DNA of 64,000 nt from a bacterium (GTDB lineage Bacteria > Bdellovibrionota_C > UBA2361 > CALJRW01), in NCBI GenBank assembly GCA_031385045.1, contig JANNBC010000010.1, positions 43,293 to 107,292 on the forward strand, in the 5' to 3' direction. Below the pieces are notes generated by a model. That model ran no database searches, was not told the DNA's origin, and was given only the letters and a program-made list of their open reading frames with translations. The first letter of the stretch is position 1, and each line of letters opens with the position of its first letter. Both the position numbers and the translations under genes were made by a program. Positions 38,481 to 64,000 of this stretch are shown here, piece after piece.

Positions 38481-39239
38481 ATGCTTAATAAAGACAAAAT
38501 CTCCGAAAGAAGGGCTAATTTACGAGAGGCTTTTCACCAAAGACGCTTTTTATTGCCTAATCTAGTGACTCTTGGGAATCTTTTTTGTGGATTCTTGTCT
38601 ATTATATACGCCAGTAGTGGTCGGTATGAAAAAGCTGTTTTGGCAATTTTTGTTGGTGCTCTGCTAGATGCCCTTGATGGTCGAGTAGCTAGAAGATTTG
38701 ATGCCTCCTCCAAGTTCGGTTTGGAATTTGATTCTTTATCAGATTTAGTAACCTTTGGAGTTGCTCCAGCCTTCTTGATGTATCAGTGGTGCTTTAAAAC
38801 TGGTGCCGATGAATTTGGAGTTATTGTTTGTTTTATTTATGTCATTTGCGCTGCTGCGCGCTTGGCTAGGTTTAACGTTGTTGATAGTGGCAGTAAGGAT
38901 TTTACTGGAATGCCCTCTCCCGCAGCCGCGGCGATGATCGTCTCAGTAGTTAATTTATTTCCAAGTATTGCCTTGCCGACTTTTTCTGTAGCTTTAGGAA
39001 GTGCCTATATTTTAATTGTTGCCTATCTGATGGTTTGTCATATCCCATATTCTAGTGGCAAGAAATTTAAGTTTAAAAACCAGCTTAGTTTTGTAATCTT
39101 AGTTGGAGCCTTAATCGCGATGCTTTGGTATGAGCCCCGTTTAACAGTATTTCTTCTAGCTTTAACTTACTGTTTAAGTGGACCAGTTAAATTACTTCCT
39201 TTTTTTAGCAAGAAGCAAGCTCCAGCTACTCCTATCTAG
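38481..39239 (+). CDS. pssA: CDP-diacylglycerol--serine O-phosphatidyltransferase
   Basis: LPNLVTLGN, DALDGRVAR....S.FG.EFDSLSDLVTFGVAPA, RLARFN, F.GMPSP. Confidence 0.93.
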   Translation: MLNKDKISERRANLREAFHQRRFLLPNLVTLGNLFCGFLSIIYASSGRYEKAVLAIFVGALLDALDGRVARRFDASSKFGLEFDSLSDLVTFGVAPAFLMYQWCFKTGADEFGVIVCFIYVICAAARLARFNVVDSGSKDFTGMPSPAAAAMIVSVVNLFPSIALPTFSVALGSAYILIVAYLMVCHIPYSSGKKFKFKNQLSFVILVGALIAMLWYEPRLTVFLLALTYCLSGPVKLLPFFSKKQAPATPI

Positions 39240-43116: not shown

Positions 43117-44472
43117 ATGACAAAAAAAATAATCCTCATTTCAATCTTTATTCTGCTAGTTGCGGGGGTATCCTTTTATCTGATGGGTGCTAATAAGAAT
43201 CTGACAGTTAGTCCAGTTGCTGCAAGCTCCGAGTCTGATTTTGTTCTACCAGCAACAGATAATATCGTCTTCTTAGTGATAGATACTTTGCGGGCGGATC
43301 ACTTACCTTTTTATGGTTATAATGTTGATACAGCTCCATTTTTATCGGAGTTAGCCGCAAAATCAATTGTATTTGAAAATGCCTTTTCTGCTAGCTCCAC
43401 CACAGCTCCTTCCATGGCCTCAGTTTTTACTTCTGTCTATCCGTCTCAACATGGAGTGTTGATGGGGATGCAAGCAACCAAGCGTTTGAAGCAACAGTTA
43501 GATGAGCCGTATCAGGATCTTTCGATTAATAAAATTCCAGCAGAGTTATTAACCTTAGGTGAGATGATGAAGCAGTCTGGATTTAAGACTTATGGTGTTG
43601 CTGATAATTTAAATATTGATCATCAAATTGGCTATATCGAAGGCTTTGATAAATTTAAAACTTTTCAATACGAGGGAGCTGCCAATTTAAATAATGTTGC
43701 CATGGAATATTATCCCGATCTACAAAATTCCAAACATTTTTTATACTTGCACTATATGGATCCGCATATTCCATATCATCAGCGCGAGCCTTGGTTTGAT
43801 AAAAATCACCCCAATCCTAAAATTGCTGCCTATGATAGTGAAATCCGTTATGCCGATGAGCATATTAAAAAAATCTTTGAGCAGTACAATGTTTTAGAAA
43901 ACTCCTTAGTAGTTTTTCTATCTGATCATGGTGAAGAGCTGGGAGATCATGGTGATTATGGTCATGGTAGAAATCTTTATCCAGAAGTTATTCGCGTTCC
44001 CTTATTTGTTTATCATCGCAACTTAAAACCAGCGCGAGTTAAACAGCCAGTGTCAACAATTGATGTTTTACCGACCTTAGCTAAGGTTACTAAAATGGAA
44101 GCACAGCCTTATTGGGAAGGGGAATCACTAACCACCTATTTTAATGATCATGATTTTGTTAAGCCCCGCACGACATTCTCCCAATTATTAGGCCCTAAAG
44201 AGTATGTGCGAGAATTGTTTATGGCAGCGCATGATCAAGATCATTGGTTATACATTGACGCAATTAGTCAGGAGCGCAAAGAGTTATTTCATCTTTCCGA
44301 AGATCCACTTGCTTTGGAAGATTTATTATTAGCTTATCCTAATAAATCAACTGAGCTTTCTTCGGAGCTTGAGGTTCTCTCCAAGAAGAGCCCAATCAGC
44401 GCACCAGAAAAAGTCGATATTAAGATGAATAAAAAGACAGTCAATAAATTAAAAACTTTAGGATATTTCTAA
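43117..44472 (+). CDS. Sulfatase-like AlkP-superfamily protein (Thr nucleophile), N-terminal anchor, LGY tail
   Basis: IDTLRADH, STTAPSM, HYMDPH.PY, SDHGE; ends KLKTLGYF. Confidence 0.88.
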   Translation: MTKKIILISIFILLVAGVSFYLMGANKNLTVSPVAASSESDFVLPATDNIVFLVIDTLRADHLPFYGYNVDTAPFLSELAAKSIVFENAFSASSTTAPSMASVFTSVYPSQHGVLMGMQATKRLKQQLDEPYQDLSINKIPAELLTLGEMMKQSGFKTYGVADNLNIDHQIGYIEGFDKFKTFQYEGAANLNNVAMEYYPDLQNSKHFLYLHYMDPHIPYHQREPWFDKNHPNPKIAAYDSEIRYADEHIKKIFEQYNVLENSLVVFLSDHGEELGDHGDYGHGRNLYPEVIRVPLFVYHRNLKPARVKQPVSTIDVLPTLAKVTKMEAQPYWEGESLTTYFNDHDFVKPRTTFSQLLGPKEYVRELFMAAHDQDHWLYIDAISQERKELFHLSEDPLALEDLLLAYPNKSTELSSELEVLSKKSPISAPEKVDIKMNKKTVNKLKTLGYF

Positions 44473-46155: not shown

Positions 46156-47904
46156 ATGCCCTATAATTCTAAATTACTCAACTCCTTAGCCTATTACCTG
46201 TTACTTGTTACGCTAGTTGCGCTAACTCTTTGGGAGTTAATTTCTAAACGCCTGGGGATAATTTTGGATCCTTATCAGGTGAGATCTGATGCACTGCAAC
46301 ACAATTTTCCCTATTGGTCTTATCTTAGCAAAGATTATTTTAATGATAACTATATTGCTGACTATTATTTAAACACCATGATTCCTCTGGGGTTAAAAAC
46401 ACTTTTTTCCAGCTTGGCTCATTTTTTTACACCGATTCAGATTGGAAAATACTTAGCCCTTACATTGGCTATAATTTTTATTATCTTGTTAACTGAGAGT
46501 GCCAAGCATTTGTCAGGTAAAGTTGCCGGCGCGTTAACGGCATTTTTTACAACAGCCTATCTGGCTAGACACTTTATTTTAGCTGATGCCATTTCCCGAT
46601 CATTTGGTTATGTAGTTGTAGCACTTGGCTTGTATGCGATTATTAAAAGACAGCCTTGGACTTTGATGATTGCTGCCTGCCTTGGGGCTCTTTTTTATCC
46701 TGCGGCAGGGGCAATTCTGGCCTGTTATTGTGGGCTAGTTGCTTTCTGGCCTAATACTATTCCTGGTTCGTTCGATGATACAAATCTTTCCCAGAAAATA
46801 TTTACTCTATTAGGTTTAGGAGTTGTCTTGCTTGTTTTATTAGTTCCGATGATTTTAGGAGGAGGGAAGTATGGGGAAAGACTTTATATTAAAAATCAGG
46901 TTGAATTCCCTGAAGCTGGACTTGGTGGAAGATACGCTTTGCAAGATCTGGGGATTAATAAATACCCCCTACCAATCGCGCTTTATCGATCGTTTAATAA
47001 AGTTTTTCTAAACAATAAAGATTTATTTCCTAGCTCAGCAGTTCTAGCTCCAGCTACTTTTAAAGTTAAGGAGAAGAAGAATCATAATTTAAATTCTGAT
47101 CGCCAATTAGTTTTTTGGACAATGATCGTGATTGTCTTTAGCGGTATTCTAGTTAATAGTTTCTATCGTAAAAGCAAAATAGATCCAAACTGGATTAGAG
47201 TTGGGCAATTTTTGTTTTCTGTTGTCGGGATTTACTATTTGGCAGTATTATTATTCCCTCATTTATATATGCCATCACGCTACCCCTTAATTAGTATACC
47301 AGCATTAGCATTAGTTGTAGTTCCAGCCGCGATAGTTAGTTTTATAAGGATTTTCAAGTCCCGAATTCTTGCTTCTGGAATCTTAGTTTTGCTTGTTGCC
47401 GTATTGATTCATTTATCTGGCATGTATCAGACAAGGCTTAGGGAGCAAATGTCTTATCGAACGAATGCACCAATCTATGACTTTTTGAAGAAGCTTCCTG
47501 CTACTACTTTAATTGCTGGTTGGCCAATTGGGATTATTGATTCAGTTCCCTACTTTTCTGGCCGGGGACCTTTTTTAACAATGGAAACTCATCAAGTTTT
47601 TCGTAGTAAATATTTACTAGAAATGAGAGCTAGGACTTATGCCATAATTGATGCCTATTTTGATAATTCGCTAGGTGCAATCTTGAATTTAAAAAACAAA
47701 TTTGGCGTGACGCATTTAATTTTAGAAAAACAATATTTTAAAAAAGCTCCTAAGTATTTTAAGCCTTTTGATAAATATATAAAATCAAAGCCTAACTTAA
47801 TTAGTAATCAGTGGACTCAGATTTATCAATCGCCAGAAGTGAAGTCAGCGATTGTCTTTAAGCATGGTTCCTATGTCGTAATCGATCTTAGTTTATTGAG
47901 TTAA
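46156..47904 (+). CDS. Polytopic membrane protein, probable GT-C-fold transferase
   Basis: DALQH loop after TM1, RSF and PSRY motifs, about 11 TMs, soluble C-terminal domain with GVTH. Confidence 0.6.
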   Translation: MPYNSKLLNSLAYYLLLVTLVALTLWELISKRLGIILDPYQVRSDALQHNFPYWSYLSKDYFNDNYIADYYLNTMIPLGLKTLFSSLAHFFTPIQIGKYLALTLAIIFIILLTESAKHLSGKVAGALTAFFTTAYLARHFILADAISRSFGYVVVALGLYAIIKRQPWTLMIAACLGALFYPAAGAILACYCGLVAFWPNTIPGSFDDTNLSQKIFTLLGLGVVLLVLLVPMILGGGKYGERLYIKNQVEFPEAGLGGRYALQDLGINKYPLPIALYRSFNKVFLNNKDLFPSSAVLAPATFKVKEKKNHNLNSDRQLVFWTMIVIVFSGILVNSFYRKSKIDPNWIRVGQFLFSVVGIYYLAVLLFPHLYMPSRYPLISIPALALVVVPAAIVSFIRIFKSRILASGILVLLVAVLIHLSGMYQTRLREQMSYRTNAPIYDFLKKLPATTLIAGWPIGIIDSVPYFSGRGPFLTMETHQVFRSKYLLEMRARTYAIIDAYFDNSLGAILNLKNKFGVTHLILEKQYFKKAPKYFKPFDKYIKSKPNLISNQWTQIYQSPEVKSAIVFKHGSYVVIDLSLLS

Positions 47905-47908
47905 GAGC

Positions 47909-49834
47909 TTATTTACTAATCCGTAGAAGCTGTGCCACACATTCTTGAATGCTTAAGGCGTTAGTATCAATCGCTACGTCTGGATTTTTTGGTGCTTCGT
48001 AAGGAGCACTAATCCCAGTAAAGTTTTTAATTTCTCCTTGTCGAGCTTTTTGATAAAGCAGATGCGGGTCTCTTTTCTCGCAAATCTCTAGTGATGTTGA
48101 TAGATAAACTTCAATAAAACAAGAATCTCCAATAATCTTTCGAGCTTGTTCACGATCTTCCACTGTTGGACTGATAAAGGCGCAAATTACGCTAACACCA
48201 GCCTCGTTAAATAGCTTGGCAACTTCTGCGACGCGACGTAAATTTTCTTGGCGATCTTTGGCGGAGAATCCTAAGTCTTTATTAAGTCCTGTTCGTAGGT
48301 TGTCACCATCTAGTAAGTAGACCGGGCGATTATTTTCAAATAGCTTTTTCTCAAAAGCCTTTGCAATTGTTGATTTGCCAGATCCTGAAAGTCCAGTAAA
48401 CCAATATGTCCGTGCCACATGACCAAACTTCTGTTCGCGATCGCTTCGCTCAATTAAGCCACTTTCATGATGTAGGTTTTGGGATCGAGGTTTTTCAGAA
48501 TCTGCGCCTAGTAGTTCTAAATCTTGGCTCGAGCGATCCATGATCATTCCTGCTGCTACCGTCGCAAAATTTTCTGGATCAATTAAAATAAAATTTCCAG
48601 TTCCGCGATTTGCTTGATAACTATCCAGAAATAGTGGTGCTGTTGATTGCAATGACATTCGGCCGATTTCATTAAGTTCCAGTGCTCCACCTGGCTTACG
48701 ACTAAGTGCATTGATGTCAATTTTATACTTAACCTCAGTAATTAAAACTCTAGCTTCATTTACTGTATGACGAATAAAGTATTTTTTATTAATATCTAAT
48801 GGCTGCTCTGACATCCAGATAACCATGGCTTCAAAGTTTGTTTCAACCTTAGGGGCATTACCTGGGCGAACTAACATGCTACCTCGTCCTACATCTAGTT
48901 GATCTTCCAAAGTGATAACTACTGATTGATTAGCGCGAGCTTCGCTTAGCTGATGATCCTTATTTAGGACGGAATGTAATTCAATCGTCTTAACTTTACT
49001 CTTCTTCATGGAAGGTAAGGCTAGGACATCTTCTCCAACGCGAATAACTCCAGAACTTAACATCCCAGCATAACCTCTAAAGTTAGCACTAGGGTTAATA
49101 ATGCACTGAACAGGAAAGCGAAAGTCTACTAGGTTGGCATCTGCTTGGTTATAAACATTTTCCAGATACTCAATTAAAGTCTCTCCGTGATACCAAGGCA
49201 TTTTCTTGCTAGGAGTCACAATATTATCACCTTCTAGTGCTGATACCGGAATAAAGCGCACGTCTCTAATTCCTAACTTTTCAGCAAAGGCCATATAGTC
49301 TTTTTTGATCTGCACAAAAACATCTTCGGCATAATCCACCATGTCCATTTTATTGACAGCGACCAAAAGACGAGGAACTCCCATCAGGGAAGCGATAAAA
49401 GAATGGCGACGAGTTTGAGTAACAATTCCCTTGCGAGCATCAATTAAAATAATTGTCACATCAGCAGTTGAAGCTCCCGTTGCCATGTTGCGAGTGTATT
49501 GCTCGTGACCTGGTGTGTCGGCTAGGATAAATTTTCTTTTAGGAGTTGAGAAGTAACGGTAAGCAACATCAATTGTAATACCTTGCTCTTGTTCCGCTTT
49601 TAATCCATCAGTAACCAGGGCTAGTTCCAGAGATTCCTTGCCACGTTTAACAGAACGCTTCATTAGAGAATCTAGTTGATCCTCATAAATGTTTTTAGAG
49701 TCATGTAACAAACGTCCAATCAGTGTTGATTTACCATCATCTACTGAGCCGGCAGTAGAGAAGCGGAGCATGGAACACTTGGCTGAATCTTCTAAGAATT
49801 TAATAATACTATGATCTGAATTTTGTTCTTGCAT
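47909..49834 (-). CDS. cysNC: Bifunctional sulfate adenylyltransferase subunit 1 / APS kinase
   Basis: GSVDDGKST, EQGITIDVAY, DTPGHEQY, NKMD; C-terminal GLSGSGKST, LDGDNLR, FTGISAPYE. Confidence 0.97.
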   Translation of the reverse strand: MQEQNSDHSIIKFLEDSAKCSMLRFSTAGSVDDGKSTLIGRLLHDSKNIYEDQLDSLMKRSVKRGKESLELALVTDGLKAEQEQGITIDVAYRYFSTPKRKFILADTPGHEQYTRNMATGASTADVTIILIDARKGIVTQTRRHSFIASLMGVPRLLVAVNKMDMVDYAEDVFVQIKKDYMAFAEKLGIRDVRFIPVSALEGDNIVTPSKKMPWYHGETLIEYLENVYNQADANLVDFRFPVQCIINPSANFRGYAGMLSSGVIRVGEDVLALPSMKKSKVKTIELHSVLNKDHQLSEARANQSVVITLEDQLDVGRGSMLVRPGNAPKVETNFEAMVIWMSEQPLDINKKYFIRHTVNEARVLITEVKYKIDINALSRKPGGALELNEIGRMSLQSTAPLFLDSYQANRGTGNFILIDPENFATVAAGMIMDRSSQDLELLGADSEKPRSQNLHHESGLIERSDREQKFGHVARTYWFTGLSGSGKSTIAKAFEKKLFENNRPVYLLDGDNLRTGLNKDLGFSAKDRQENLRRVAEVAKLFNEAGVSVICAFISPTVEDREQARKIIGDSCFIEVYLSTSLEICEKRDPHLLYQKARQGEIKNFTGISAPYEAPKNPDVAIDTNALSIQECVAQLLRISK

Positions 49835-49835
49835 G

Positions 49836-50729
49836 TTAAAAGTAACCCTCTCGTTTTTTCATCTCCATTGATCCATCACGGTCGTGATCGATAATTCTAG
49901 TTGCGCGTTCTGATGTTCTAGTCGTCATCATTTCGGCAATAATATCTTCTACGCTTGTTGCTTCCGATCTAACTGCCCCAGTGCAAGGCGAGCATCCTAG
50001 GGTGCGAAAACGACAAAGGACTTCTTCTGATTTTTCACCAGGAAAAACTTTAGCTGCTTGGTTAACAGGAATTAATTGTTCTCCACGAACCACAACTTCG
50101 CGTTTTTTGGCAAAGTATAATGGGACAATTGGAATTTGCTCTAAGTGGATGTAATGCCAGACATCAAGCTCAGTCCAGTTAGAAATTGGAAAAACTCGAA
50201 TCGACTCACCTTGCGCAACTTTTCCATTATATAAATTCCAAAGCTCGGGTCGTTGGCTACGTGGTTCCCATTGTCCAAAGCGATCACGAAAAGAAAAAAC
50301 TCTTTCTTTGGCACGAGAACGTTCTTCGTCACGGCGAGCTCCGCCCATGGCAGCATCAAAATTATATTTCTTTAAACCATCAAGTAGAGCTTTAGTTTTT
50401 AACTGTCCACAACATTGTTGTGTTCCTAGATCGTAAGGGTTGGTGTTATTGGCAATCGCTTTTTCATTGCGATAGACAAGTAATTCCGCTCCGATTGATT
50501 TTGTATACTCATCACGAAAGGCATACATCTCGGGAAATTTGAATCCAGTATCAATATGCATTAACGGAAAAGGAATTTTCCCAGGATAGAATGCTTTCTT
50601 GGCCAGGTGCAGAAGTACAGAAGAGTCTTTGCCCACAGAGTAAAGCATTACTGGTCGCTCAAATTGAGCAGCAACCTCGCGCATAATATAAATACTTTCT
50701 GATTCTAGTTGTTGTAGATAAGTGATCAT
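49836..50729 (-). CDS. cysD: Sulfate adenylyltransferase subunit 2
   Basis: [42 protein letters not shown]. Confidence 0.97.
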
Positions 50730-50732
50730 GCG

Positions 50733-52166
50733 TTACATATATCCTAATGTTGTAAGTTCATCAATTTCGCTCTGGTTTAGGTTCTGCTCACCTAATTTTC
50801 GAGCTCCACCCTTAAAAAACTTGAGTAGCTCATCAGTTTTACGCTTAAAAGTCGGCTTCAGAGAAGAATAATGATCTCCTAGGTTTCTTTCTTCAAAAGG
50901 ATCTGCTTTTAAATCATAATATTCATTGCTACTTTCAGTGTGGTGAATATGCTTTTCTTCTAAATCGTGAACCGAAAATATTTCACCACTTTCCCATGGG
51001 CCCCTTAAAGTTCCAGAGTCTTTTGGGCGTCTTTCGGCAAAGGAGTAAGCAACTTTTTGCTCGCCCCACTTTCCAGTTGTTAAAAGCGGTACTAGGGAAA
51101 TACCCTGAACTTTTTGCTCTAAGGATATTTTTGCTCCTGTGAGTTCGATTATTGTGGGAAGATAGTCAACCGTCCGCACTAGATCATTGATTGCCAATGT
51201 TTTAAGACGCTTATTATTAGCACTAAAGATAAGTGGAACATGCAGTTGCTCTTGATATAAGAACTCACCATGTCCAGCATAGTCGTGATTTCCAAGACCT
51301 TCACCATGGTCAGAAGTAACGATCCAAAGGATGTCATCATCTCCTTTAGATTTAATAAAGTCGGCCAATCGTTTTAGTTGGTCATCAATATAACGGAGCC
51401 TAGCGTCGTAGCGTGTCATTGATTCATAATATTTCTGGCGATCGTTATTATAAAAAGAAAGTGGAATGTTGTGCTTGCTAACGACAAAGTCAATTAATGC
51501 TTCGGCCTCAGGGGTGCCATATTTAGGAAACATATTTAAGTATTCCATTGGGAGAGTGGGGCTATTTTCTTCTGCCCATTCATGAACATCGTAGAGGTGA
51601 AGCCATAAGAAATACTGTTCGGGATTATTGTTTTGCTCTAGCCATTTAATGGCACGGTTAACATTGGGTTCTGCCATTAGATATTGAACTTTAGCTTCTC
51701 CGGTAAAACGTTTTAAACGAAATTCTTGCTCGGGAGTCGGAAAGCCAACTTTTCCTTCCAAGAATTTAGTCGCAGTGAAAATACCTTGTTTGTAGTTAAG
51801 GGAATTGAGCACTTGGTGTAGGTGAAAGAGTTTAGAGTTCATGCTGTCATGATTTCGCAGTACTTTGTGTTCGTATGGAAAAAGTGAGGTAAACATTGTG
51901 CTATGGGAAGGAGCCGTGTGCGAAGAGGCACTAAAGGCATTCTCAAACTTAACACCTTGTTCCATTAATTGAGATAGAAAGGGACTGGTCTCCCTGATAT
52001 ATCCATAGCATTTAAGATGATCGGGCCTTAGGGTATCAATTGTTATAAAAACAATCTTTTTAAAAGGGCCAATTGCTTTGTTTTTGTGGCATCCCGCAAA
52101 TGGAATGGTAAGTATTCCGAAAAGTATGATGCTTAGGAAAAAAAGCCTATTTTTATAGTTAAACAT
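50733..52166 (-). CDS. Sulfatase-like lipoprotein (Thr nucleophile), LGY tail; first gene of the cysD-cysNC operon
   Basis: Lipobox FAGC, IDTLRPDH, SHTAPSH, SDHGE; ends ELTTLGYM; 3 bp from cysD. Confidence 0.88.
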   Translation of the reverse strand: MFNYKNRLFFLSIILFGILTIPFAGCHKNKAIGPFKKIVFITIDTLRPDHLKCYGYIRETSPFLSQLMEQGVKFENAFSASSHTAPSHSTMFTSLFPYEHKVLRNHDSMNSKLFHLHQVLNSLNYKQGIFTATKFLEGKVGFPTPEQEFRLKRFTGEAKVQYLMAEPNVNRAIKWLEQNNNPEQYFLWLHLYDVHEWAEENSPTLPMEYLNMFPKYGTPEAEALIDFVVSKHNIPLSFYNNDRQKYYESMTRYDARLRYIDDQLKRLADFIKSKGDDDILWIVTSDHGEGLGNHDYAGHGEFLYQEQLHVPLIFSANNKRLKTLAINDLVRTVDYLPTIIELTGAKISLEQKVQGISLVPLLTTGKWGEQKVAYSFAERRPKDSGTLRGPWESGEIFSVHDLEEKHIHHTESSNEYYDLKADPFEERNLGDHYSSLKPTFKRKTDELLKFFKGGARKLGEQNLNQSEIDELTTLGYM

Positions 52167-52429: not shown

Positions 52430-53797
52430 ATGTTAGATAAAATCTGCCTTATTTTGATAGCCAGTTTGGCTATTTTTGCTGGAAGTTGCCAGCGTCAAGT
52501 CCAAATCCCTAATTTAAAAGATTTAAACGTACTGTTAATTGTTGTTGATACTCTCGGCGCTAAACATTTAGAGGCCTATAATCGTGAGTTAAAGAATGCT
52601 CCCAATATAACTCGCCTGGCCGATGAAGGTGTGCTTTTTGAGCAAGCATATTCTGCGGCTCCTTGGACCAAGCCGGCAATCTCTTCTATTTTTACTGGCA
52701 AACTTCCCTCTCAGCATAACGTCCGAGGGATTGATGATAATTTATTAGATGATCAACTAACTATTGCTGAGATCTTTAAGGAGCGTGGTTACAAAACAGC
52801 CGGTAGAGTTAGTCATACTTTCATTTCCGCTAAAAAAGGTTTTAGTCAGGGCTTTGATAGCTATAATGTTGTGCCATTTAAAGGGAATGTTCATGATGTG
52901 ATCACATCTCAGGAGGTGACAGCAGAGGGTCTTGATTGGTTAAAGGAGCAGCAAGCAAAAAAAGATGGCAAAAACTTTTTCATGTTCTTACATTATTTTG
53001 ACCCTCATTATACTTACCAGCATCATCAAGAGTTTGATCGCAGTTCTCATTATAAAGGCCCGTTAACTTCTGGTATGTACATTCGAAAACTTCGAGAATT
53101 AATTCCCACTCTGACACCGGCAGATATTGAATATTTAGTTAATCTTTATCATGAAGAAATTGCTTATACCGATTTTTATATTGGAAAGGTGTTAGATTAT
53201 TTGAAAGAGTCTGGCTTGGCGGACAATACGGTAGTGATTTTAACAGCAGATCATGGGGAAGAGTTCTTAGAGCACGGGGATATCGGCCATACAGTCACAC
53301 TCTATGACGAATTAGTCCGAGTTCCTTTGATCATTTCTTTACCTAAATATCTTCGTCCCCATGTCGTTAAAGAAAATGTTTCTACAATGGATATTTTACC
53401 AACTCTCATGAGTTTAGATCCTGTTAAGCTGGAATATGGATTTTCTGGTATATCCTTACTTGATGCTTTAACTGGCAAACAAGCCTTGTCTCCTATTCGT
53501 GATATTAAATTTGAAGTTGATTATCAAGCTGGAATTCAAGCTTTCAAAGCAGGTGTTAAGCAGGATGAGTTTAAGTTAATTCATGATAAGGAAACTAAGG
53601 CTTGGGAGCTTCATAATCTAGCAGTAGACCCAGCTGAATTAAATAATCAAAAAGAAGTTTATCCGGGAGACTTTGAGAGAATAAAACCTAGCTTGCAAAA
53701 CTTTATGGATTCACAAGGGGCTACAAATGGAACTCGCACCGAGGAGCAACGAACTCCAGAAGAGATTAAGCAGCTTAAAACATTAGGGTACATGTAG
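52430..53797 (+). CDS. Sulfatase-like lipoprotein (Thr nucleophile), LGY tail
   Basis: Lipobox AGSC, VDTL, PWTKPA, HYFDPH, ADHGEE; ends QLKTLGYM. Confidence 0.88.
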   Translation: MLDKICLILIASLAIFAGSCQRQVQIPNLKDLNVLLIVVDTLGAKHLEAYNRELKNAPNITRLADEGVLFEQAYSAAPWTKPAISSIFTGKLPSQHNVRGIDDNLLDDQLTIAEIFKERGYKTAGRVSHTFISAKKGFSQGFDSYNVVPFKGNVHDVITSQEVTAEGLDWLKEQQAKKDGKNFFMFLHYFDPHYTYQHHQEFDRSSHYKGPLTSGMYIRKLRELIPTLTPADIEYLVNLYHEEIAYTDFYIGKVLDYLKESGLADNTVVILTADHGEEFLEHGDIGHTVTLYDELVRVPLIISLPKYLRPHVVKENVSTMDILPTLMSLDPVKLEYGFSGISLLDALTGKQALSPIRDIKFEVDYQAGIQAFKAGVKQDEFKLIHDKETKAWELHNLAVDPAELNNQKEVYPGDFERIKPSLQNFMDSQGATNGTRTEEQRTPEEIKQLKTLGYM

Positions 53798-53858
53798 CTT
53801 TATTTATATATAGTCTGCAAAATTTAAATTGATAGAAACTTTAAAAAATAAATACGGG

Positions 53859-55202
53859 ATGATTCTTAAAACATTTATTCGTTTATTAACTTTTTCAATT
53901 TTTTTGATCTGCTGTTTGACCTTAGGTTCTTGTCAGTTATTTAAGAGCAAAAAGCCCAATGTCATTTTTCTAATGCTTGATACTTTGCGAGCCGATCATC
54001 TGGGTATTTATGGTTACGAGCGCAACACCAGTCCAAACATAGATCAGTTTGCCAGAGAAAATTTACTTTTTAAAAATGCGATTACTGCTGTTCCCTGGAC
54101 TCCCCCTTCTGTTGCGGGGATGTTAAGTGGATTATATCCGACTTCCCATAATTTTATGCCACCAAATAGTCGAGAGGAAGCAACCAGTAGTGTTTCTAAG
54201 TTGAGCGATGCTGTTTTAACACTCCCTGAAGTTTTAAAAGCACAAGGGTATCAAACACATGCAATTAGTTCTAACCCCTGGATTACGGATACTTTTGGTT
54301 TTAATCAGGGATATGAAAAATTTGAATACCTAGAGCGTGAGCAGGCTGATATTATTACAGATTCAGGAATTAAAGCGATCGATCAAATGAGTGCTAAGGA
54401 TCAGCCATTTTTTCTTTATTTACATTATCTAGATCCGCATGAGCCATACACGCCTCCAAATAAGTATGTTCAGGCTTTTAAAGGCCCACTTAAGTCTCGT
54501 GAATATGATGTGGAAATGCAACGAAAGATTGGTTTGTATGATGGTGAAATCGCCTTCATGGATGAATGTTTAGGTAAGTTGTTTACTTATCTTAAAGAAA
54601 AAAATCTTTATGAGAATTCAATTATTGTAATTGTTGGTGATCATGGTGAGCAGTTCATGGAACATGGAAATATTAGTCATGGCAATGAATTGTTTAATCC
54701 CGAGTTGCATGTGCCAATGATGATTAAGACTGGGAAGCAGGTGCAACAAAGAGTTGTGGATTATGCTGTTAGTAATATTGATTTATTTCCGACAATTTTA
54801 GATTTAGTGGGCTTAGTACCGCCAACTAATTATCAAAGTGTTTCTTTAGTTAAGGATGAAAACTCTCAAGCCCGTGGTGGGGTGCTTTCTGAAATTAAGA
54901 GAAAATATAACCAGCGTTCTTTTACTAAGTTTGATGGCCAGCGTTTGTTAGTTGGATCTCGCAGTCAAGATCTTACTGTTGATGCTAAGGATGCTGTCGC
55001 TAATTCTATTGGTGTTTTTGATTCCTTTAAAGATATTTGGGAAGAAGCTCCGATTGAGAATCCCGAGCTTCTAAAACAGTTGCAGGCCGAGTTCCAAGCC
55101 GAGCTTCAGAAATCAGAGAGTTTAAAAGTAAAGTCGGCAACAGGTGATGCCGTTGATGAGACAACGATCTCGCAGTTAGAATCTCTTGGGTATTTGAAAT
55201 AA
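53859..55202 (+). CDS. Sulfatase-like lipoprotein (Thr nucleophile), LGY tail (ORF track starts at 53829)
   Basis: Lipobox LGSC, LDTLRADH, PWTPPS, HYLDPH.PY, GDHGE; ends QLESLGYLK. Confidence 0.88.
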   Translation: MILKTFIRLLTFSIFLICCLTLGSCQLFKSKKPNVIFLMLDTLRADHLGIYGYERNTSPNIDQFARENLLFKNAITAVPWTPPSVAGMLSGLYPTSHNFMPPNSREEATSSVSKLSDAVLTLPEVLKAQGYQTHAISSNPWITDTFGFNQGYEKFEYLEREQADIITDSGIKAIDQMSAKDQPFFLYLHYLDPHEPYTPPNKYVQAFKGPLKSREYDVEMQRKIGLYDGEIAFMDECLGKLFTYLKEKNLYENSIIVIVGDHGEQFMEHGNISHGNELFNPELHVPMMIKTGKQVQQRVVDYAVSNIDLFPTILDLVGLVPPTNYQSVSLVKDENSQARGGVLSEIKRKYNQRSFTKFDGQRLLVGSRSQDLTVDAKDAVANSIGVFDSFKDIWEEAPIENPELLKQLQAEFQAELQKSESLKVKSATGDAVDETTISQLESLGYLK

Positions 55203-55204
55203 AT

Positions 55205-57289
55205 ATGATGAATAAAAATAAAGTAATCTTAATTTTCTTGGCACTGTGTTTACAGCAAGCCATGCTACCTTCTTTTGCTTTTGCTTATATTGGACCAGGT
55301 GCTGGCTTTGCCTTTTTAGGTTCAGCCTTTGTTTTCATTTTAACAATTGGCCTCGCAATTTTAACTATTCTTTTTTGGCCTTTACAGCTTGTCTTAAGAA
55401 AACTTCGGAAGAAAGGAATTTCTAGGAAAGCTAGAACTCGTCGCGTTGTAATTTTGGGTCTTGATGGATTAGAGCCAACTTTAGTGGAAAGATTAATGGG
55501 TGAAGGCCGCCTTCCAAATTTTCAAAAGTTAAAAGATCAAGGTGCCTATTCTAGATTGGGAACAACCTTGCCTTCGCTTTCTCCTGTTGCTTGGTCAACT
55601 TTTCAAACAGGAGTAAATCCTGGAGCACATAATATCTTTGATTTTTTAACTCGTGATAAGCGCTATTGTTTACCTTTGCTTTCTTCAACAGAAACTACAA
55701 CAGTTGCGAAGTATTTTCGCTTTGGTCCTTTTAAGGTTAAACGTGGTGAGCGCGCCGAAGTGAAATTACTACGAAAGTCTAAGCCTTTTTGGAAAATCCT
55801 TGGGGATAAAGGGATTTTTTCTAATATTATTCGAGTTCCAATTTCATATCCACCAGAAAAATTTGCTGGAAATATTCTTTCAGCAATGTGTACGCCAGAC
55901 TTACGTGGGACACAGGGAACCTTTTCTTTTTTTACAAGTGATCCAGGACATCACGAGCTTAGTACCGATGGGACAACTGGTGGAGAAGTTAAATCGCTGG
56001 ACAAGAGGGGAGATTCCTATCATGGTATTTTAGTTGGTCCACCAGATGCTGCTAACCCCAGTCAAAATTTAACATTAGATTTTATTGTCACACCAAAGAG
56101 TCCAACGCTAGCTGATTTCCAAATTGGCGAAGAGAAATTTTCGTTGGAGCTTGGTAAATTGTCAGATTGGATTTCTGTTCGATTTGGCAAAAAGATTTTT
56201 GGCATCGCACGTTTTTGTTTGCGTGCTTCACAGCCCGAATGTTCTGTGTATATTTCCCCCATTAATGTCGATCCAAGTAATCCGGCACTTCCCATCTCAC
56301 AGCCAATATATTTTTCTAATTGGATTGCCAAGAGTCAAGGTCTGTTTGGGACACTAGGAATGTTGGAAGACACTTGGGGGCGTAATGAATTAGCACTTAA
56401 TGACAGTGCTTTTTTAGAACAAGCCTACTTAACTCATGCTGAGCGTGAGAAAATGTTTTTTGAAACCTTAAGCAAAACTCGTGAAGGTTTATGTTGTTGT
56501 GTCTTTGATGCTAGTGACCGCATTCAGCATATGTTCTGGCGTTACATGGATCCTAACCATCCATCTCCTTTAGAAGGCGATGAATTTAAGGACACTATTC
56601 CAAAGATGTACGAGCGAATGGATCAGCTGGTCGGTAAGACCATGTCTAAATTAAATCCGAAGGATACCTTTATAATTTTAAGTGATCATGGATTCGCTTC
56701 CTTCCGACGTTGTATTGGGCTGAATGCTTGGTTGTATCAAAATGGTTATTTAGCTTTGAAGGAAGGTGCCAAGCCAGGACGTGATTATTTCCAAGATGTA
56801 GATTGGAGTAAGACGAAAGCTTTTGCTGTAGGACTATCGGGAATTTATATTAATCGCAAAGGTCGCGAGGTCAATGGGATTGTTGCAGAGGAAGAAGCGA
56901 AGTTATTAAAGCAGGAATTGTCCGATAAGATTGAGCAATTAAGAGACCCTCAGGATAATGCTAATGTCGTTAGTAAGGTCTATGACACGGCAGTTCATTA
57001 CACTGGAATTTATGCGAAAGATGCTCCAGACTTGATCATTGGATATTATCCAGGATTTAGAGTCTCGTGGGATTCCGTTACTGGAACAGTAGAAGAAGAA
57101 ATTTTCTCGGATAATTTAAAAGCTTGGAGTGGGGATCATCATGTCGATCCAAAATTAATTCCGGGAATCTTATTTGTTAATCAGAAGAAAGAACTAAATA
57201 ATCCACACATTGCTGATTTGGCACCTACCGTCTTGGATCTTTTTAATGTGTCGATACCCAAATATATGGAAGGAAAGGTTTTAATCTAA
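55205..57289 (+). CDS. AlkP-superfamily phosphodiesterase/NPP-like protein with a signal peptide-YIGPG-TM N-terminus
   Basis: GLDG, LPSLSPVAWSTF.TG.NPG.H.IFDF, DRIQH, SDHGF, SGDH. Confidence 0.85.
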   Translation: MMNKNKVILIFLALCLQQAMLPSFAFAYIGPGAGFAFLGSAFVFILTIGLAILTILFWPLQLVLRKLRKKGISRKARTRRVVILGLDGLEPTLVERLMGEGRLPNFQKLKDQGAYSRLGTTLPSLSPVAWSTFQTGVNPGAHNIFDFLTRDKRYCLPLLSSTETTTVAKYFRFGPFKVKRGERAEVKLLRKSKPFWKILGDKGIFSNIIRVPISYPPEKFAGNILSAMCTPDLRGTQGTFSFFTSDPGHHELSTDGTTGGEVKSLDKRGDSYHGILVGPPDAANPSQNLTLDFIVTPKSPTLADFQIGEEKFSLELGKLSDWISVRFGKKIFGIARFCLRASQPECSVYISPINVDPSNPALPISQPIYFSNWIAKSQGLFGTLGMLEDTWGRNELALNDSAFLEQAYLTHAEREKMFFETLSKTREGLCCCVFDASDRIQHMFWRYMDPNHPSPLEGDEFKDTIPKMYERMDQLVGKTMSKLNPKDTFIILSDHGFASFRRCIGLNAWLYQNGYLALKEGAKPGRDYFQDVDWSKTKAFAVGLSGIYINRKGREVNGIVAEEEAKLLKQELSDKIEQLRDPQDNANVVSKVYDTAVHYTGIYAKDAPDLIIGYYPGFRVSWDSVTGTVEEEIFSDNLKAWSGDHHVDPKLIPGILFVNQKKELNNPHIADLAPTVLDLFNVSIPKYMEGKVLI

Positions 57290-57504: not shown

Positions 57505-58098
57505 TTAACAACTACCAGCGCCCCAAGTACCTTTTGTGTTGTACTTTGATCCATCAGTCCAAATATAACTGTATTTTGTGAAATGATTATTGTTATTATT
57601 AAACATTGAACAATCAGTTAGATCGAACGAAAGTCCAAAACTAATCGGAGTAGCTCCACTAGTAGTTATAGTCAAGTCTTCGCTATAATGAACAAAGGCA
57701 TTCCAAGTGCTAGGTGGAGTTAGCATTTCTTTAGGATAGATACTGTTTATTTCCTCTTGGGAGAGTAAGTCATATCTAGGAGTACCGCCGACACCACCAA
57801 CGAGAGTTGATACTTCGAGGCGAGGATTAGAGCCACCAGCAAACCACTGCACAGCAAAACTTGTCCTGACATCTCCCAGTCTGTCAGCTGCAATATCCCT
57901 TGCCGCTTGGTTAGCGACAGTGAAGTCGTGTAATGTCGATAGGATAGTTGCCTTTTTTGCAGAATCAGAAAACTGTCTAAATCCAGCCACAGAAATTGCC
58001 GAGAGAATTCCGACAATTACAATAGTTACCAATAGCTCAACAAGGGTAAATGCAGAAATTTTAGAAATATTATTGGCACGGCCTCTCAGTAAAATCAT
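57505..58098 (-). CDS. Type IV pilin-like protein
   Basis: Class III signal A|FTLVELLVTIVIVGILSAI; C-terminal Cys pair. Confidence 0.85.
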   Translation of the reverse strand: MILLRGRANNISKISAFTLVELLVTIVIVGILSAISVAGFRQFSDSAKKATILSTLHDFTVANQAARDIAADRLGDVRTSFAVQWFAGGSNPRLEVSTLVGGVGGTPRYDLLSQEEINSIYPKEMLTPPSTWNAFVHYSEDLTITTSGATPISFGLSFDLTDCSMFNNNNNHFTKYSYIWTDGSKYNTKGTWGAGSC

Positions 58099-58408: not shown

Positions 58409-58624
58409 ATGTTCAAGAAATCAATCAAAATCGACAACGTCCTGTTTGACAAATTAACAGTGGCTGCTCAAATCAAGAAATGTTCTTCGATGGAAGAGTT
58501 TGCTTTGCAAGTTTTAGAAGCGGAAGCAGATAAAGTTTTGACAGAAACTGCCAAGGGCGATTTATCTCAAGATCAGATTGATGATATTACAAATAAACTA
58601 AAAGGCTTAGGTTATTTGGAATAG
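58409..58624 (+). CDS. Small ribbon-helix-helix (CopG-like) protein with a C-terminal LGY tail (ORF track starts at 58397)
   Basis: Strand SIKID, helix, SS turn, helix MEEFALQVLE, acidic linker, ends KLKGLGYLE. Confidence 0.75.
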   Translation: MFKKSIKIDNVLFDKLTVAAQIKKCSSMEEFALQVLEAEADKVLTETAKGDLSQDQIDDITNKLKGLGYLE

Positions 58625-58636
58625 TAAAGAAATTTC

Positions 58637-59446
58637 ATGGGAGCTAAATTACTAACCTACATTAACCAAATTGTCTCATTTTTAGTTTGGCCATTCACCT
58701 TATTACCTTCTTGGTTTGGTTTACTAGCTATCTCAGTTGTCGCCGGCATGGGCTTGCTCTGGATTTATGGGAAAGTTTCTAATCAAAATAAAATTCGTTA
58801 TGTGAAGAGTAAGATTTATGCTTCGCTCTTAGAGTCAATTCTTTTTAGGCATGATGTTTGGATGACATTAAAAGCGCAAGGTAAGATGCTCTTTTACGGA
58901 GGCAGATATTTTACACTAGCAATTTTTCCTGTTTTAATTCTTGCCGCTCCTTCTATTCTCTTATTGTCGGAACTAAATGAGCAATATGCATCCAAGTCTT
59001 TAGATTCTAAATCAGAAGCAATTGTTCAAATGACTTTGAGCGACGCTAGTAAGCTCTATGAGGTAAAGCTGGAAGCACCTGCTGGTCTTGATGTAACTCC
59101 ACCCGTTAGAATTCCTGCGAGTAAGCAAGTCTTTTGGAAGATTAAAACTTCGGAGCCTGGCAACCAAGAAGTAAATTTTCAAATTGCTGATTTTAATTTC
59201 CCTAAAACGTTATTTGTTGGTTCAGGCAAGAATCACGTCGGAGCTGTATGGAAAAGCTCTTGGGCGGGCAAGCTGTTGTATCCAGCAGGACCTGCTAGTA
59301 TGCCATATGTTCAGAGTTTAACTATTAATTATCCAGAACAACTTTATAGCCTTGGATTATTCGAAGTTAATTGGTTAATTTTCTTTCTAATATTCTCGAT
59401 GCTTTCGGGGATTGTTGTAAGTAAGTATCTGGGCGTCGCTATTTAA
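58637..59446 (+). CDS. Membrane protein resembling DUF106/EMC3/TMCO1 (Oxa1 superfamily), with an inserted beta-rich domain
   Basis: TM, SNQ.KI..VK coiled region, FPVLIL..P TM, beta domain, final TM WL.FF.I.S....SK.LGV. Confidence 0.6.
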   Translation: MGAKLLTYINQIVSFLVWPFTLLPSWFGLLAISVVAGMGLLWIYGKVSNQNKIRYVKSKIYASLLESILFRHDVWMTLKAQGKMLFYGGRYFTLAIFPVLILAAPSILLLSELNEQYASKSLDSKSEAIVQMTLSDASKLYEVKLEAPAGLDVTPPVRIPASKQVFWKIKTSEPGNQEVNFQIADFNFPKTLFVGSGKNHVGAVWKSSWAGKLLYPAGPASMPYVQSLTINYPEQLYSLGLFEVNWLIFFLIFSMLSGIVVSKYLGVAI

Positions 59447-59586
59447 AATTTATGTCTGTTTTTTTAAATGAAAGGCATAAGCTTTTGTGACACCTACAGC
59501 AAAAAATGGCGCTGGCATAGTTTTGCGCGCTCTAAGGGAATTATTTTTTTAAAATGATTCCCTTAAGATTTATTAAGGAAATAAAT

Positions 59587-60444
59587 ATGTCTAACGTGAA
59601 AAATAATTTCATCATGATCACTTTCGATTCCTGTCGATTTGATACTTTTTTAGCTGCTAATACTCCAAACATCTCCCGCCTTGGTCAGACTGAAAAGTGT
59701 TACTCCTTTGCTAGTTGGACATTTCCATCACACCTTGTCTATTTAATGGGAGCGGGCCCTCACACAAGTCCGAAAGGTGTCTTTGCCTCTGAAGTATATA
59801 AAAAGGACTTTGAAAATTGGGGAGATAGATTAAATATCCCTGACATTTCCTTTAAAGGTTTTGTTCCCAGACTTTCACTCCCAGCATTTTTAAAAAGCCA
59901 AGGCTATAAAACTAATGCCTTAGTTTCCATGCCTGTTTTAAACCCAACTACTATCGTAAATACTCATTTTGATCGCTTTCAATTAATGGATAAGCATAAT
60001 GATTTTAATGCGATTATTGATGCGATGATTTTTGAGCCAGAAGTTCCGCAGTTCTATTTATTAAATATTGGTGAAACGCATTATCCTTACACTCTCCCAG
60101 GTGAAGGTAATGACTTGCCGATCATTCATGGGATGCATGGGATTTTCAAGCATATGGATGATTTCGTTGCTGGTAACTCTGCTCCTGCTCAAGCAGCCGA
60201 TCATGGCGGTGATAAATTTTTCCACATGGATCGCATGTTGGCGCTCAAGGAAAAACAACGCACAAACATCGAATATCTCGATGGTCTGTTTGAGAAGTTA
60301 TATGAAAAAGTTCCTGAAAATACTTACGTCCAGGTAATGTCTGATCACGGGGAGTGCTTTGGTGAAGATGGCTACTTTGGCCATGGACCGATTATGCACG
60401 AAAAAGTTTTTGAAATCTTTAAAGTGGAAGGTAAATTTAAATAA
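59587..60444 (+). CDS. Short cytoplasmic sulfatase-like protein (Thr nucleophile, no signal peptide, no LGY tail; ORF track starts at 59554)
   Basis: FDSCRFD, SWTFPSH, ETHYPY, SDHGE.FGEDG..GH; AAGGA SD before the ATG at 59587. Confidence 0.82.
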   Translation: MSNVKNNFIMITFDSCRFDTFLAANTPNISRLGQTEKCYSFASWTFPSHLVYLMGAGPHTSPKGVFASEVYKKDFENWGDRLNIPDISFKGFVPRLSLPAFLKSQGYKTNALVSMPVLNPTTIVNTHFDRFQLMDKHNDFNAIIDAMIFEPEVPQFYLLNIGETHYPYTLPGEGNDLPIIHGMHGIFKHMDDFVAGNSAPAQAADHGGDKFFHMDRMLALKEKQRTNIEYLDGLFEKLYEKVPENTYVQVMSDHGECFGEDGYFGHGPIMHEKVFEIFKVEGKFK

Positions 60445-62450
60445 TGGGAATTACTCGTCGCCAATTTATTAAGGGAACTGCTGCCAGCCTAGCTGTTGGA
60501 GCGGCGAGTAGTATAATTACTCCAGGTTCTGCTTTCGCTAAGTTTCCGCATATCCGAAATAATAAGATTGCACGCAAGGCGATCGTCTTGGGCTTTGATG
60601 GGATGGATCCGGATTTAACTCGCAAGTTTATTGCGGAAGGACACATGCCAACATTTAAAAAAATGATTGAAAAGGGTTGGCACTTTGGTGAGCTGCAAAG
60701 CACAATGCCACCACAAAGTCCTGTAGCTTGGGCTAGTTTTATAACCGGAACAAATCCAGGGGGAACAGGGATTTTTGATTTCGTACATCGTGATCCGGCC
60801 AACTTTGCTCCCTATCTTTCTACTTCTAGAAGTTTTGATGCCGAGAAGACCTATCAAGTTGGCAACTGGAATATTCCCTTAAGTGGTGGGCGAGTGGACT
60901 TGATGCGTAAAGGCATTCCATTTTGGGATTACTTAACAAAAGAAGATATTCCATCAACAGTTTTCCAAATTCCTGCTAATTTTCCGATTGTGCAGTCAGG
61001 TACTAATATGATTAGCGGAATGGGAACGCCTGATCTTTTAGGTTCTTATGGTACATATACTTATTATACTGATACTCTGGTTCCTGGTTCAGAGAAGTTT
61101 GTTGGAGGGCGAGTAATCCGCGTGCGCGGAGCTGATAATACTTTTAAAACAACTTTGCCTGGGCCTCAAAATACTTTCCGCGTTGATGGACGCGCAACAA
61201 CAGTCGATTTTACAATTAATCGTGATTCTTATGAGAAAGTTCTAAAGATTACAATCCAAGGGCAAGATATAATTCTGCGCCAAGGCGAATGGTCTGGATG
61301 GATTCCCTTAACTTTTGAATTAATCCCTCATTTAGCATCTGCGCCAGCGATGGTGCGTTTCTTTGCACAAGAAGTCCACCCTAACTTTAAACTCTATGTC
61401 TCCCCAATTAACATCGATCCTCTAAATCCAGCACTGCCAATTTCGGGCCCAGTCGAATATGCCAGCGATCTAGCTAATGCTGTGGGACGTTTTTATACTC
61501 AAGGATTTCCAGCTGACAGTAAGGCTTTATCCACAGGTGTTTTTTCTGATGATGAATATTTAGTTCAATCTAAAATTGTTCTTCAGGAAAACCTTGCTTC
61601 CTTTGAATATCAGTTAAAAAATTTCCAGGAAGGTTTATTCTATTTCTATTTTTCGTCCACAGATCAGAATCAACATATGATGTCTCGTTTAATGGATCCA
61701 ACTCATCCGCAGTACAATCCAAATGGAAGTCCAGAAACAAAAAATGCTGTGCTTTATTTCTACAAGGCGATGGATGATGTCTTAGAACAAACCTTGTCTA
61801 AGGTTGATAGCTCAACGTTAGTGATCGCTCTTTCTGATCATGGGTTTGCACCTTTTACTAGAGAATTTAATTTAAGCACTTGGTTGGTGAACGAAGGTTT
61901 TACTGCGGTGTATAATCCAAAGGATATGGAAGATGCCGAAGTTTATTCCTGCGTTGATTGGGAAAAGACTCAAGCTTATGCCTTAGGAATTAATGGTCTT
62001 TATATTAATATCAAAGGGCGAGAGAAGAATGGATCTGTTGCCCAAGAGCAAGTTCAGGCAATTAAAGATCAGATTATTAGCAAGCTCTCCCAAGTGAAAG
62101 ATCCGCTAAATAATCAACCAATTATTACTTCTGTCTATGACGCTGAAAAACTTTACTCTGGGGAGTTCGCCAGTTCTGCTCCAGACTTAGTGGTTGGTTA
62201 TCAACGGGGATATCGTATTTCAGATGAAGCTGTTCTTGGTAAGTTCCCAAAAGAGATTGTAACTGATCGTAAGGATAAGTGGGCCTCAGATCATTGCTCA
62301 GATCCAATGGTTGTTCCTGGGATGATCCTAACAAATAAAACTTGTAATACTCAAGGTGCAGGGCTTTGGGATATGGGACCAAGTATTCTTAAAGCTTTTG
62401 GTATTGATACCCCAAAGCAGATGAATGGCAAGAATGTACTAGAAAGCTAA
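60444..62450 (+). CDS. Tat-exported AlkP-superfamily phosphodiesterase/NPP-like protein
   Basis: TRRQFIKG twin-arginine signal ending AFA; GFDGMD, PPQSPVAWASF.TG, DQNQH, SDHGF, SDH; TAATG coupling to the upstream gene. Confidence 0.88.
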   Translation: MGITRRQFIKGTAASLAVGAASSIITPGSAFAKFPHIRNNKIARKAIVLGFDGMDPDLTRKFIAEGHMPTFKKMIEKGWHFGELQSTMPPQSPVAWASFITGTNPGGTGIFDFVHRDPANFAPYLSTSRSFDAEKTYQVGNWNIPLSGGRVDLMRKGIPFWDYLTKEDIPSTVFQIPANFPIVQSGTNMISGMGTPDLLGSYGTYTYYTDTLVPGSEKFVGGRVIRVRGADNTFKTTLPGPQNTFRVDGRATTVDFTINRDSYEKVLKITIQGQDIILRQGEWSGWIPLTFELIPHLASAPAMVRFFAQEVHPNFKLYVSPINIDPLNPALPISGPVEYASDLANAVGRFYTQGFPADSKALSTGVFSDDEYLVQSKIVLQENLASFEYQLKNFQEGLFYFYFSSTDQNQHMMSRLMDPTHPQYNPNGSPETKNAVLYFYKAMDDVLEQTLSKVDSSTLVIALSDHGFAPFTREFNLSTWLVNEGFTAVYNPKDMEDAEVYSCVDWEKTQAYALGINGLYINIKGREKNGSVAQEQVQAIKDQIISKLSQVKDPLNNQPIITSVYDAEKLYSGEFASSAPDLVVGYQRGYRISDEAVLGKFPKEIVTDRKDKWASDHCSDPMVVPGMILTNKTCNTQGAGLWDMGPSILKAFGIDTPKQMNGKNVLES

Positions 62451-62881: not shown

Positions 62882-63154
62882 ATGGGAAAGAGATTAAGCC
62901 AGGAGCTAAAATATGAAGCGATTCGACTAGTTGAGCATCATGGTGTTAAGCATGATCAGGTAGTTAAAGAACTAGGAATTGGACGTTCCACTCTTGATAA
63001 ATTGTTAAAAGAGTACCGAACTGTCGAAAGTAATGGATTAACAGTAGATGAGAAAGCTGAACTTAAAAGGCTGAGGGAGGAGGTTAGAATCCTAAAAATT
63101 GAGAAAGAGCTTTTAAAAAAAGCGACGGTATACTTTGCAAAGCACTCGGAGTGA
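62882..63154 (+). CDS. IS3 transposase OrfA (HTH + leucine zipper)
   Basis: ELK.EAI.LV, V..ELGI..STL..., ELKRLREE...LK.E.ELLKKA..YFAK; AGGAG SD. Confidence 0.92.
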   Translation: MGKRLSQELKYEAIRLVEHHGVKHDQVVKELGIGRSTLDKLLKEYRTVESNGLTVDEKAELKRLREEVRILKIEKELLKKATVYFAKHSE

Positions 63155-64000
63155 GGTGTGGTTTTGTTGCCGAGCACTGCAAGCTAGATTTGGGAATCCC
63201 AAGGCTGTGTAATTTAGTTCAAGTTTCCAAGTCTAGCTACTATCATTGGTGTAAAGGATTAGAAGATCGAGAACTAACTCTTCAGGCTGAAAAAGAGTTG
63301 TATTTTAAGATTAAAAGAATCTTTATTGAAAGCCTGAAGAGTTATGGAGTTCCTAGAATTCACACAGCATTATTAAGATCTGGTGTTGCTTGCAGTCGAA
63401 GACAAATTGGCAGAATAATGCGTAAAAACAAGCTTATTTCTGTTCATTGCAAAAGATCTTTTATTACAACGACTGATTCAACGAAGACAAAAGCACCTGC
63501 TGAAAATTTATTAGATAGAAACTTTAAAGCAAAGTTTCCTAATGAAAAATGGGTTGGCGATGTGACTTACATTCGAACTGGCGAAGGTTGGGTATACTTA
63601 GCAACAGTAATTGATTTGTTTTCTAGGAAAATAGTTGGTTACAGATTAGGAGCTAGGAATGATGCTGTTCTTGCTTGCTCAGCTTTCCAAATGGCGCTAG
63701 CCAGAAGGAAACAACCGAAGCAATTAATTTATCATTCCGACAGAGGAAGTGTTTATGCAAGTAATGAGTTTAAAAAGTTACTTGCGGACAATAAGATCAC
63801 ACCAAGTATGAGTAGGAAGGGTAACTGCTGGGACAAAGCAGTCGCTGAATCTTTCTTTCATACTTTAAAAGTTGAGCTGATATATCAAACTAAATTTAGA
63901 TTGAGAATATCAGCATTATCTAGTATCAATAACTGGATATAAAATTTCTACAATCCGAGGAGAATGCATTCACCTCTGGGATATTGTAGTCCTGACGAAT
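63151..64000 (+). pseudogene. IS3 transposase OrfB (DDE) with a premature TAA at 63940-63942
   Basis: W.GD.TY, YLA.VID..SR, HSDRGS.Y, GNCWD.A..ESFF; frame continues after the stop as NFYNPRRMHSPLGYCSP. Confidence 0.85.

Follow-up and report, generated by a model that had tools for sequence, protein, structure and literature searches.

Ylp1 (MJ0480; DUF106, PF01956, COG1422; PDB 5C8J) is described as near-universal in archaea and encoded near secY and ribosomal genes (PMC5898192), while TMCO1, EMC3 and Get1 are described as a core of three transmembrane segments (TMs) with a cytosolic coiled coil (PMC5868721). For general biogenesis these endoplasmic reticulum (ER) members need obligate partners, OPTI, EMC6 and Get2 (PMC7616256), and the available accounts treat this three-TM, partner-dependent branch as archaeal and eukaryotic, with YidC as the bacterial member (PMC5868721, PMC8887752, PMC7616256, PMC8662606, PMC13261788, PMC5898192). 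Here we analyse a 64,000-nucleotide stretch of bacterial DNA, the window (GCA_031385045.1, contig JANNBC010000010.1, positions 43,293 to 107,292). Our results support the assignment of the protein encoded at 58637..59446 to the Oxa1 superfamily as a bacterial three-TM member of the archaeal/ER type, and not as a YidC. A literature search, with subscription papers, most supplements and InterPro entries outside its reach, listed no paper that deals with the operon, with the LGY and YxGPG motifs described below or with DUF106 proteins as a family in bacteria. The parts of the protein are as follows (percentages give conservation).

58637..59446, + strand: DUF106/Ylp1-type, Oxa1-superfamily-like three-TM membrane protein with an Ig insert, 269 amino acids (aa); the main feature
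58640..58699, + strand: amphipathic N-terminal helix, residues 2-21, resembling H0 of Ylp1
58709..58777, + strand: TM1, residues 25-47 (S33 96%, G37 94%)
58784..58912, + strand: helical hairpin with basic charge, residues 50-92, predicted to be cytoplasmic (Q50 99%, K/R57 100%, Q81 85%, Y91 98%)
58913..58987, + strand: TM2, about residues 93-117 (P98 94%, P105 98%)
58997..59227, + strand: beta-sandwich, Ig-like insert, predicted periplasmic, residues 121-197 (R158 and W167 90%)
59372..59431, + strand: TM3, residues 246-265 (W246 100%, F/Y250 98%, S254 96%, G258 85%, K/S262)

This is the layout reported in the preliminary description of the locus: a TM, a charged coiled segment, a proline-containing TM, a beta-rich insert and a terminal TM. 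With Ylp1 the protein shares the N-terminal amphipathic helix, the three TMs, a conserved Q and K in the hairpin, the prolines of TM2 and a last TM with the order W, aromatic, S. It differs from Ylp1 in being bacterial, in its extracytoplasmic insert of about 125 residues that holds the Ig domain, and in belonging to a patchy family tied to an enzyme operon. The three-TM core, with TM1 and TM2 separated by the helical hairpin, is also common to TMCO1, EMC3 and Get1; unlike theirs, its co-inherited partners are enzymes. YidC (PF02096) belongs to the same superfamily, resides in the bacterial inner membrane and carries a periplasmic beta domain, but the window protein has neither the h4h5 TM hairpin nor the conserved groove arginine. 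The positive groove residue of the YidC type is not conserved in the family: only 10 of 150 sequences have a K or R between residues 28 and 44, within TM1. A loop charge of +5.75 and the charge of the C-tail fit a cytoplasmic hairpin and C-terminus under the positive-inside prediction.

Searched against PDB sequences, the family profile had 5C8J as its sole match (E 6.3e-5), and the family members P0119 and P0066 exceed the Pfam cut-off for PF01956. The window protein alone matched nothing in Pfam or NCBIfam, and a PF01956 scan of 110 genomes of the phylum gave no hit above the cut-off. The best match of a wide structural search, at a middling Z, was to a chain of 177 residues from the multipass translocon structure 7TUT; judging by entry and length, we take this chain to be TMCO1. 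Foldseek with a second look returned Ig-domain matches only, with no Oxa1 member among the matches listed, which does not exclude Oxa1 kinship. YidC is a separate gene in the same genome and is not matched by the family profile (probability 0.1); PF02096 is absent from the families listed for 150 members, whose three TMs do not form a five-TM core. Fused forms of greater length were looked for in 8,000 candidates and none was found, a weak indication that they are absent. None of 5 carrier genomes had PF07019, the EMC6/Elp1-type partner, in a weak test whose control matched in 2 archaea only below the cut-off. The kinship with archaeal DUF106/Ylp1 proteins rather than YidC, which the preliminary description had proposed, is supported by the 5C8J profile match, the two members above the cut-off, the structural match and the unmatched YidC, and matches to the Oxa1 core were found by both profile and structure.

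The low individual scores and the middling Z would also fit a convergent helical hairpin protein that is no Oxa1 homologue, or a second general housekeeping insertase. We consider either very improbable, as Oxa1-family members rank first in the sequence searches and, separately, in the structure searches, and as the gene is patchy within one genus (15 of 33 genomes), is lost with its operon in a deletion (below) and, in the loci examined, has neither secY nor ribosomal genes close by. The family was found, alongside YidC, in at least 7 bacterial phyla (as named in database records); 27 GTDB loci come from Bdellovibrionota, Acidobacteria, Verrucomicrobiota, Planctomycetota, Omnitrophota, Sumerlaeota and Methylomirabilota.

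The enzymes to which the gene is tied are two paralogs on either side of it.

55205..57289, + strand: NPP-type alkaline-phosphatase-superfamily enzyme (PF01663), 694 aa, invariant Ser126
55286-55306, + strand: invariant YxGPGAG tail of the 694-aa enzyme
60444..62450, + strand: paralogous NPP-type enzyme (PF01663), 668 aa, with a Tat signal; predicted exported

At the N-terminus of the 694-aa enzyme an AxA-type signal is followed by YxGPGAG, a TM and a basic stretch, and from this order its catalytic domain is predicted to be cytoplasmic. The motif residues Y, G, P, G, A and G do not vary. In 121 of 121 sequences the first metal ligand follows the Tyr by 60 residues; 107 of these sequences were picked by similarity in that same region. 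Relatives of the 668-aa twin carry Tat or Sec-like leaders, with a loose RR pattern in 18 of 30. Across the 110 genomes the Oxa1-like gene occurs in 44, the YxGPG enzyme in 44 and the exported twin in 45. The first two are found together in 42 genomes and neither in 64, with 2 + 2 discordant, and the corresponding table for the Oxa1-like gene and the twin is 43/1/2/64; we give counts and no p-values because related genomes are not independent. Two exceptions break at contig ends (G064 and G107), and G097 probably does as well. G068 holds a relic operon (L060:6593-7514) in which the Oxa1-like gene keeps only its N-terminal half, fused by a deletion to the twin's last residues, with cysDNC kept alongside. 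The one clear real exception is G071 (L059:9148-12668), which has a Thr-type 'sulfatase' and an intact YxGPG enzyme without the small upstream gene described below, the Oxa1-like gene or the twin. Among 201 sampled genomes of a Verrucomicrobiota order, the Oxa1-like gene and the YxGPG enzyme are carried by the same 6. Gene order and this pattern of presence and absence strongly back the earlier proposal that the protein is dedicated to one system.

We tentatively favour the reading that the Oxa1-like protein is not a general insertase but a permanent component, the membrane subunit, of a module that relays sulfate across the envelope. Three considerations suggest this. A group passed from an inward-facing enzyme to an outward-facing twin would have to cross the membrane somewhere, and the loci examined conserve no gene for a transporter. 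Oxa1 proteins of the three-TM type usually depend on a partner at the last helix, and the weak test above found none of the EMC6 type. The anchor tail, finally, is conserved beyond the needs of insertion alone. The strongest competitor, possible although less probable, is a dedicated insertase or assembly chaperone, which would insert the loop-TM hairpin of the 694-aa enzyme, with its short signal, and then release it. We liken this hairpin topology to that of M13 procoat. Moving short tails across the membrane is the ancestral role described for the superfamily (PMC7616256), the 694-aa enzyme has such a short translocated tail, and the co-occurrence of the two genes is near perfect. However, the genome has a general YidC, G071 keeps a 694-aa-type enzyme without the Oxa1-like protein, neither the invariant tail sequence nor the conserved Ig surface is needed for insertion alone, and the exported twin, which lacks an anchor of this kind, co-occurs just as tightly.

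The preliminary description placed the start of the gene 12 bp after an LGY microprotein.

58409..58624, + strand: ribbon-helix-helix (RHH)-like protein, 71 aa, ending in an LxxLGY tail; the immediate upstream neighbour in nearly all loci

The adjacency holds widely: in 24 of the 27 GTDB loci the small gene immediately precedes the Oxa1-like gene, and it does so, often with a four-base overlap, in 30 of the 30 best loci of the window's own phylum (a set that includes the window and overlaps in part with the 27). Two of the three exceptions begin at contig ends (L006 and L017, the latter genome having the small gene at the end of another contig), and in L018 the Oxa1-like gene is truly unlinked, the remaining operon being intact elsewhere in the same genome. 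The alignment of the small protein reads strand-helix-helix and then the LxxLGY tail; it has weak matches to several RHH families and falls among CopG clusters in Atlas at 0.93. Its best PDB match, uL13, was dismissed as a coincidence of the tail. The protein is probably cytoplasmic, and it was rejected as an unlikely membrane client because it has no TM and is RHH-like. The YxGPGAG-TM anchor of the 694-aa enzyme is the better candidate for a client or partner. A pilin-like gene with an N-terminal methylation motif (57505-58098, - strand) sits between the 694-aa enzyme and RHH genes, which adjoin in many relatives.

The hydrophilic groove of Oxa1 proteins is described as a polar residue in H1 and an H5 with an interfacial Trp, an aromatic residue at -1 and polar residues at -3/+3/+7/+11 (Lewis and Hegde). 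In the window protein S33, W246, F/Y250, S254 and K/S262 fit this pattern, position -3 is aliphatic and +7 is Gly, in a register taken from a weak TM3 alignment and manual mapping. The two non-polar groove positions, the missing YidC-type arginine and the conservation of R158 and W167 in the Ig domain are what would be expected of a scaffold that only holds the inward and outward enzymes while the group crosses elsewhere and the groove is vestigial. This seems unlikely to us, given that conservation is highest in TM3 and TM2, that S33 and S254 are near-invariant, and that the loci examined conserve no transporter gene. Slightly less likely still is a dedicated scramblase, whose groove would flip a lipid carrier with a sulfate or phospho-headgroup between the two enzymes. 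Lipid-donor chemistry is common in Thr/Ser alkaline phosphatase (AlkP)-type transferases such as LtaS and EptA, and counts in its favour. Lipid scrambling by the Oxa1 family is described in vitro and in silico (bioRxiv 2023.09.01.555937), but scrambling is generic to insertases, YidC could provide it, and the invariant tail would be left unexplained.

The group that is moved is probably sulfate, with a phospho-headgroup as the alternative, and the genes that bear on this are the following.

47909..50729, - strand: cysD and fused cysNC (ATP sulfurylase and APS kinase, where APS is adenosine 5'-phosphosulfate), activated-sulfate source; from sequence, with an APS kinase match at the same place
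52430..55202, + strand: two proteins of 'sulfatase' fold that have Thr in place of CxPxR at the nucleophile, LGY tails and lipoprotein-like signals
50733..52166, - strand: third Thr-type 'sulfatase'-fold protein, LGY tail
43117-44472, + strand: fourth Thr-type 'sulfatase'-fold protein
59554..60444, + strand: STM4013-like AlkP-fold protein, 296 aa, nucleophile position occupied by Thr, without a signal peptide; probable start at 59587

All 4 'sulfatases' of the window have Thr instead of CxPxR and an LGY tail, and 3 have lipoprotein-like signals. Sulfatase-fold proteins of Halobacterium salinarum, Agl30/Agl31, are described as glycan sulfotransferases (PMC11980604). APS kinase is present in 37 of 44 carriers versus 29 of 66 other genomes of the phylum, and within one genus in 15 of 15 carriers versus 4 of 18 others. 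Five of the 7 carriers without APS kinase were tested and cysD is retained in 5 of 5; the three that were read have a short form with an LGY tail, which in G056 lies within the module. This suggests that APS can serve as donor in these carriers. A PAPS (3'-phosphoadenosine 5'-phosphosulfate) sulfotransferase occupies the place of the Thr-type 296-aa enzyme in ten loci of other phyla and the two occur together in no locus examined, an exclusion confounded with phylogeny. With one query, the 206-aa sulfotransferase was not found in the 110 genomes, and its profile has a single weak match in the window's own genome.

Short CysD proteins of 267 aa, from carriers without APS kinase, end in LxxLGY at L069:8992-9795, L070:14061-14864 and L071:18759-19562, and the long CysD of the window (49836-50729) has a comparable GYF at its end; there may be a relation between the LGY tail and the C-terminus of CysD. 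LGY-tailed APS kinases at L009:951-1685 and L013:1062-1670 adjoin a third PF01663 paralog of 435 aa.

In the relay that we favour, CysDN(C) would produce APS or PAPS, and a cytoplasmic loader (the Thr-type 296-aa enzyme here, the PAPS sulfotransferase in other phyla) would activate the group together with the inward-facing 694-aa enzyme. The TM of the latter would pack on the Oxa1-like protein, perhaps at the site used by EMC6/OPTI/Elp1-type partners, and a carrier would take the group across at the hydrophilic groove, which would be open to the cytoplasm. The most attractive candidate for this carrier is the invariant Tyr in the YxGPGAG tail. On the outer side, the 668-aa twin would dock on the Ig domain, remove the group and feed the Thr-type 'sulfatases', which would sulfate surface glycans. 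The tyrosine carrier is the least supported of these steps, and a doubtful one, drawn from the analogy with DltX and PatA, in which a Tyr of a membrane peptide is described to relay a group and an acyl group is carried on a C-terminal Tyr through an MBOAT protein (PMC12148441). Neither these systems nor Agl30/Agl31 involve an Oxa1-type protein, and they are analogies to the module only. The preliminary description had spoken of moving a peptide tail or a charged group, and either activity is still an inference. A more specific version appears improbable: an insertase repurposed as a reusable conduit, in which a Tyr-tipped N-terminal tail would shuttle through the groove between cytoplasmic activated sulfate and periplasmic Thr-type sulfotransferases.

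A multi-TM protein without a Pfam match (46156-47904, + strand), which we take to resemble a GT-C glycosyltransferase, and a multi-TM PMT_2 member (41356-42876, - strand) each have a paralog on contig C54 and may make the acceptor glycan. A CDP-alcohol phosphatidyltransferase (38481-39236, + strand), about 16 kb upstream of the module, matters only if a phospho-headgroup is moved. Between the Oxa1-like and 296-aa genes lies an AT-rich hairpin of 15 pairs (59533-59565, + strand), which overlaps the first possible start codon of the latter. Promoter-like sites are at chance level (13 vs 15.7 +/- 4.0), no RNA holder was listed, and the GC content across the module is not unusual. Two overlapping open reading frames (62882-63942, + strand) look by eye like an IS3-family transposase.

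Taken together, a three-TM Oxa1 branch is present in bacteria beside YidC and is locked to one enzyme module, a genetically compact system in which to ask whether Oxa1 grooves specialise for one client or for the movement of a chemical group. The conduit, if true, would be a new way of bacterial surface sulfation and would provide the first case of an Oxa1 protein that transports a chemical group. The suggested route of activated sulfate to the periplasm would make many mis-named Thr-type 'sulfatases' sulfotransferase candidates.
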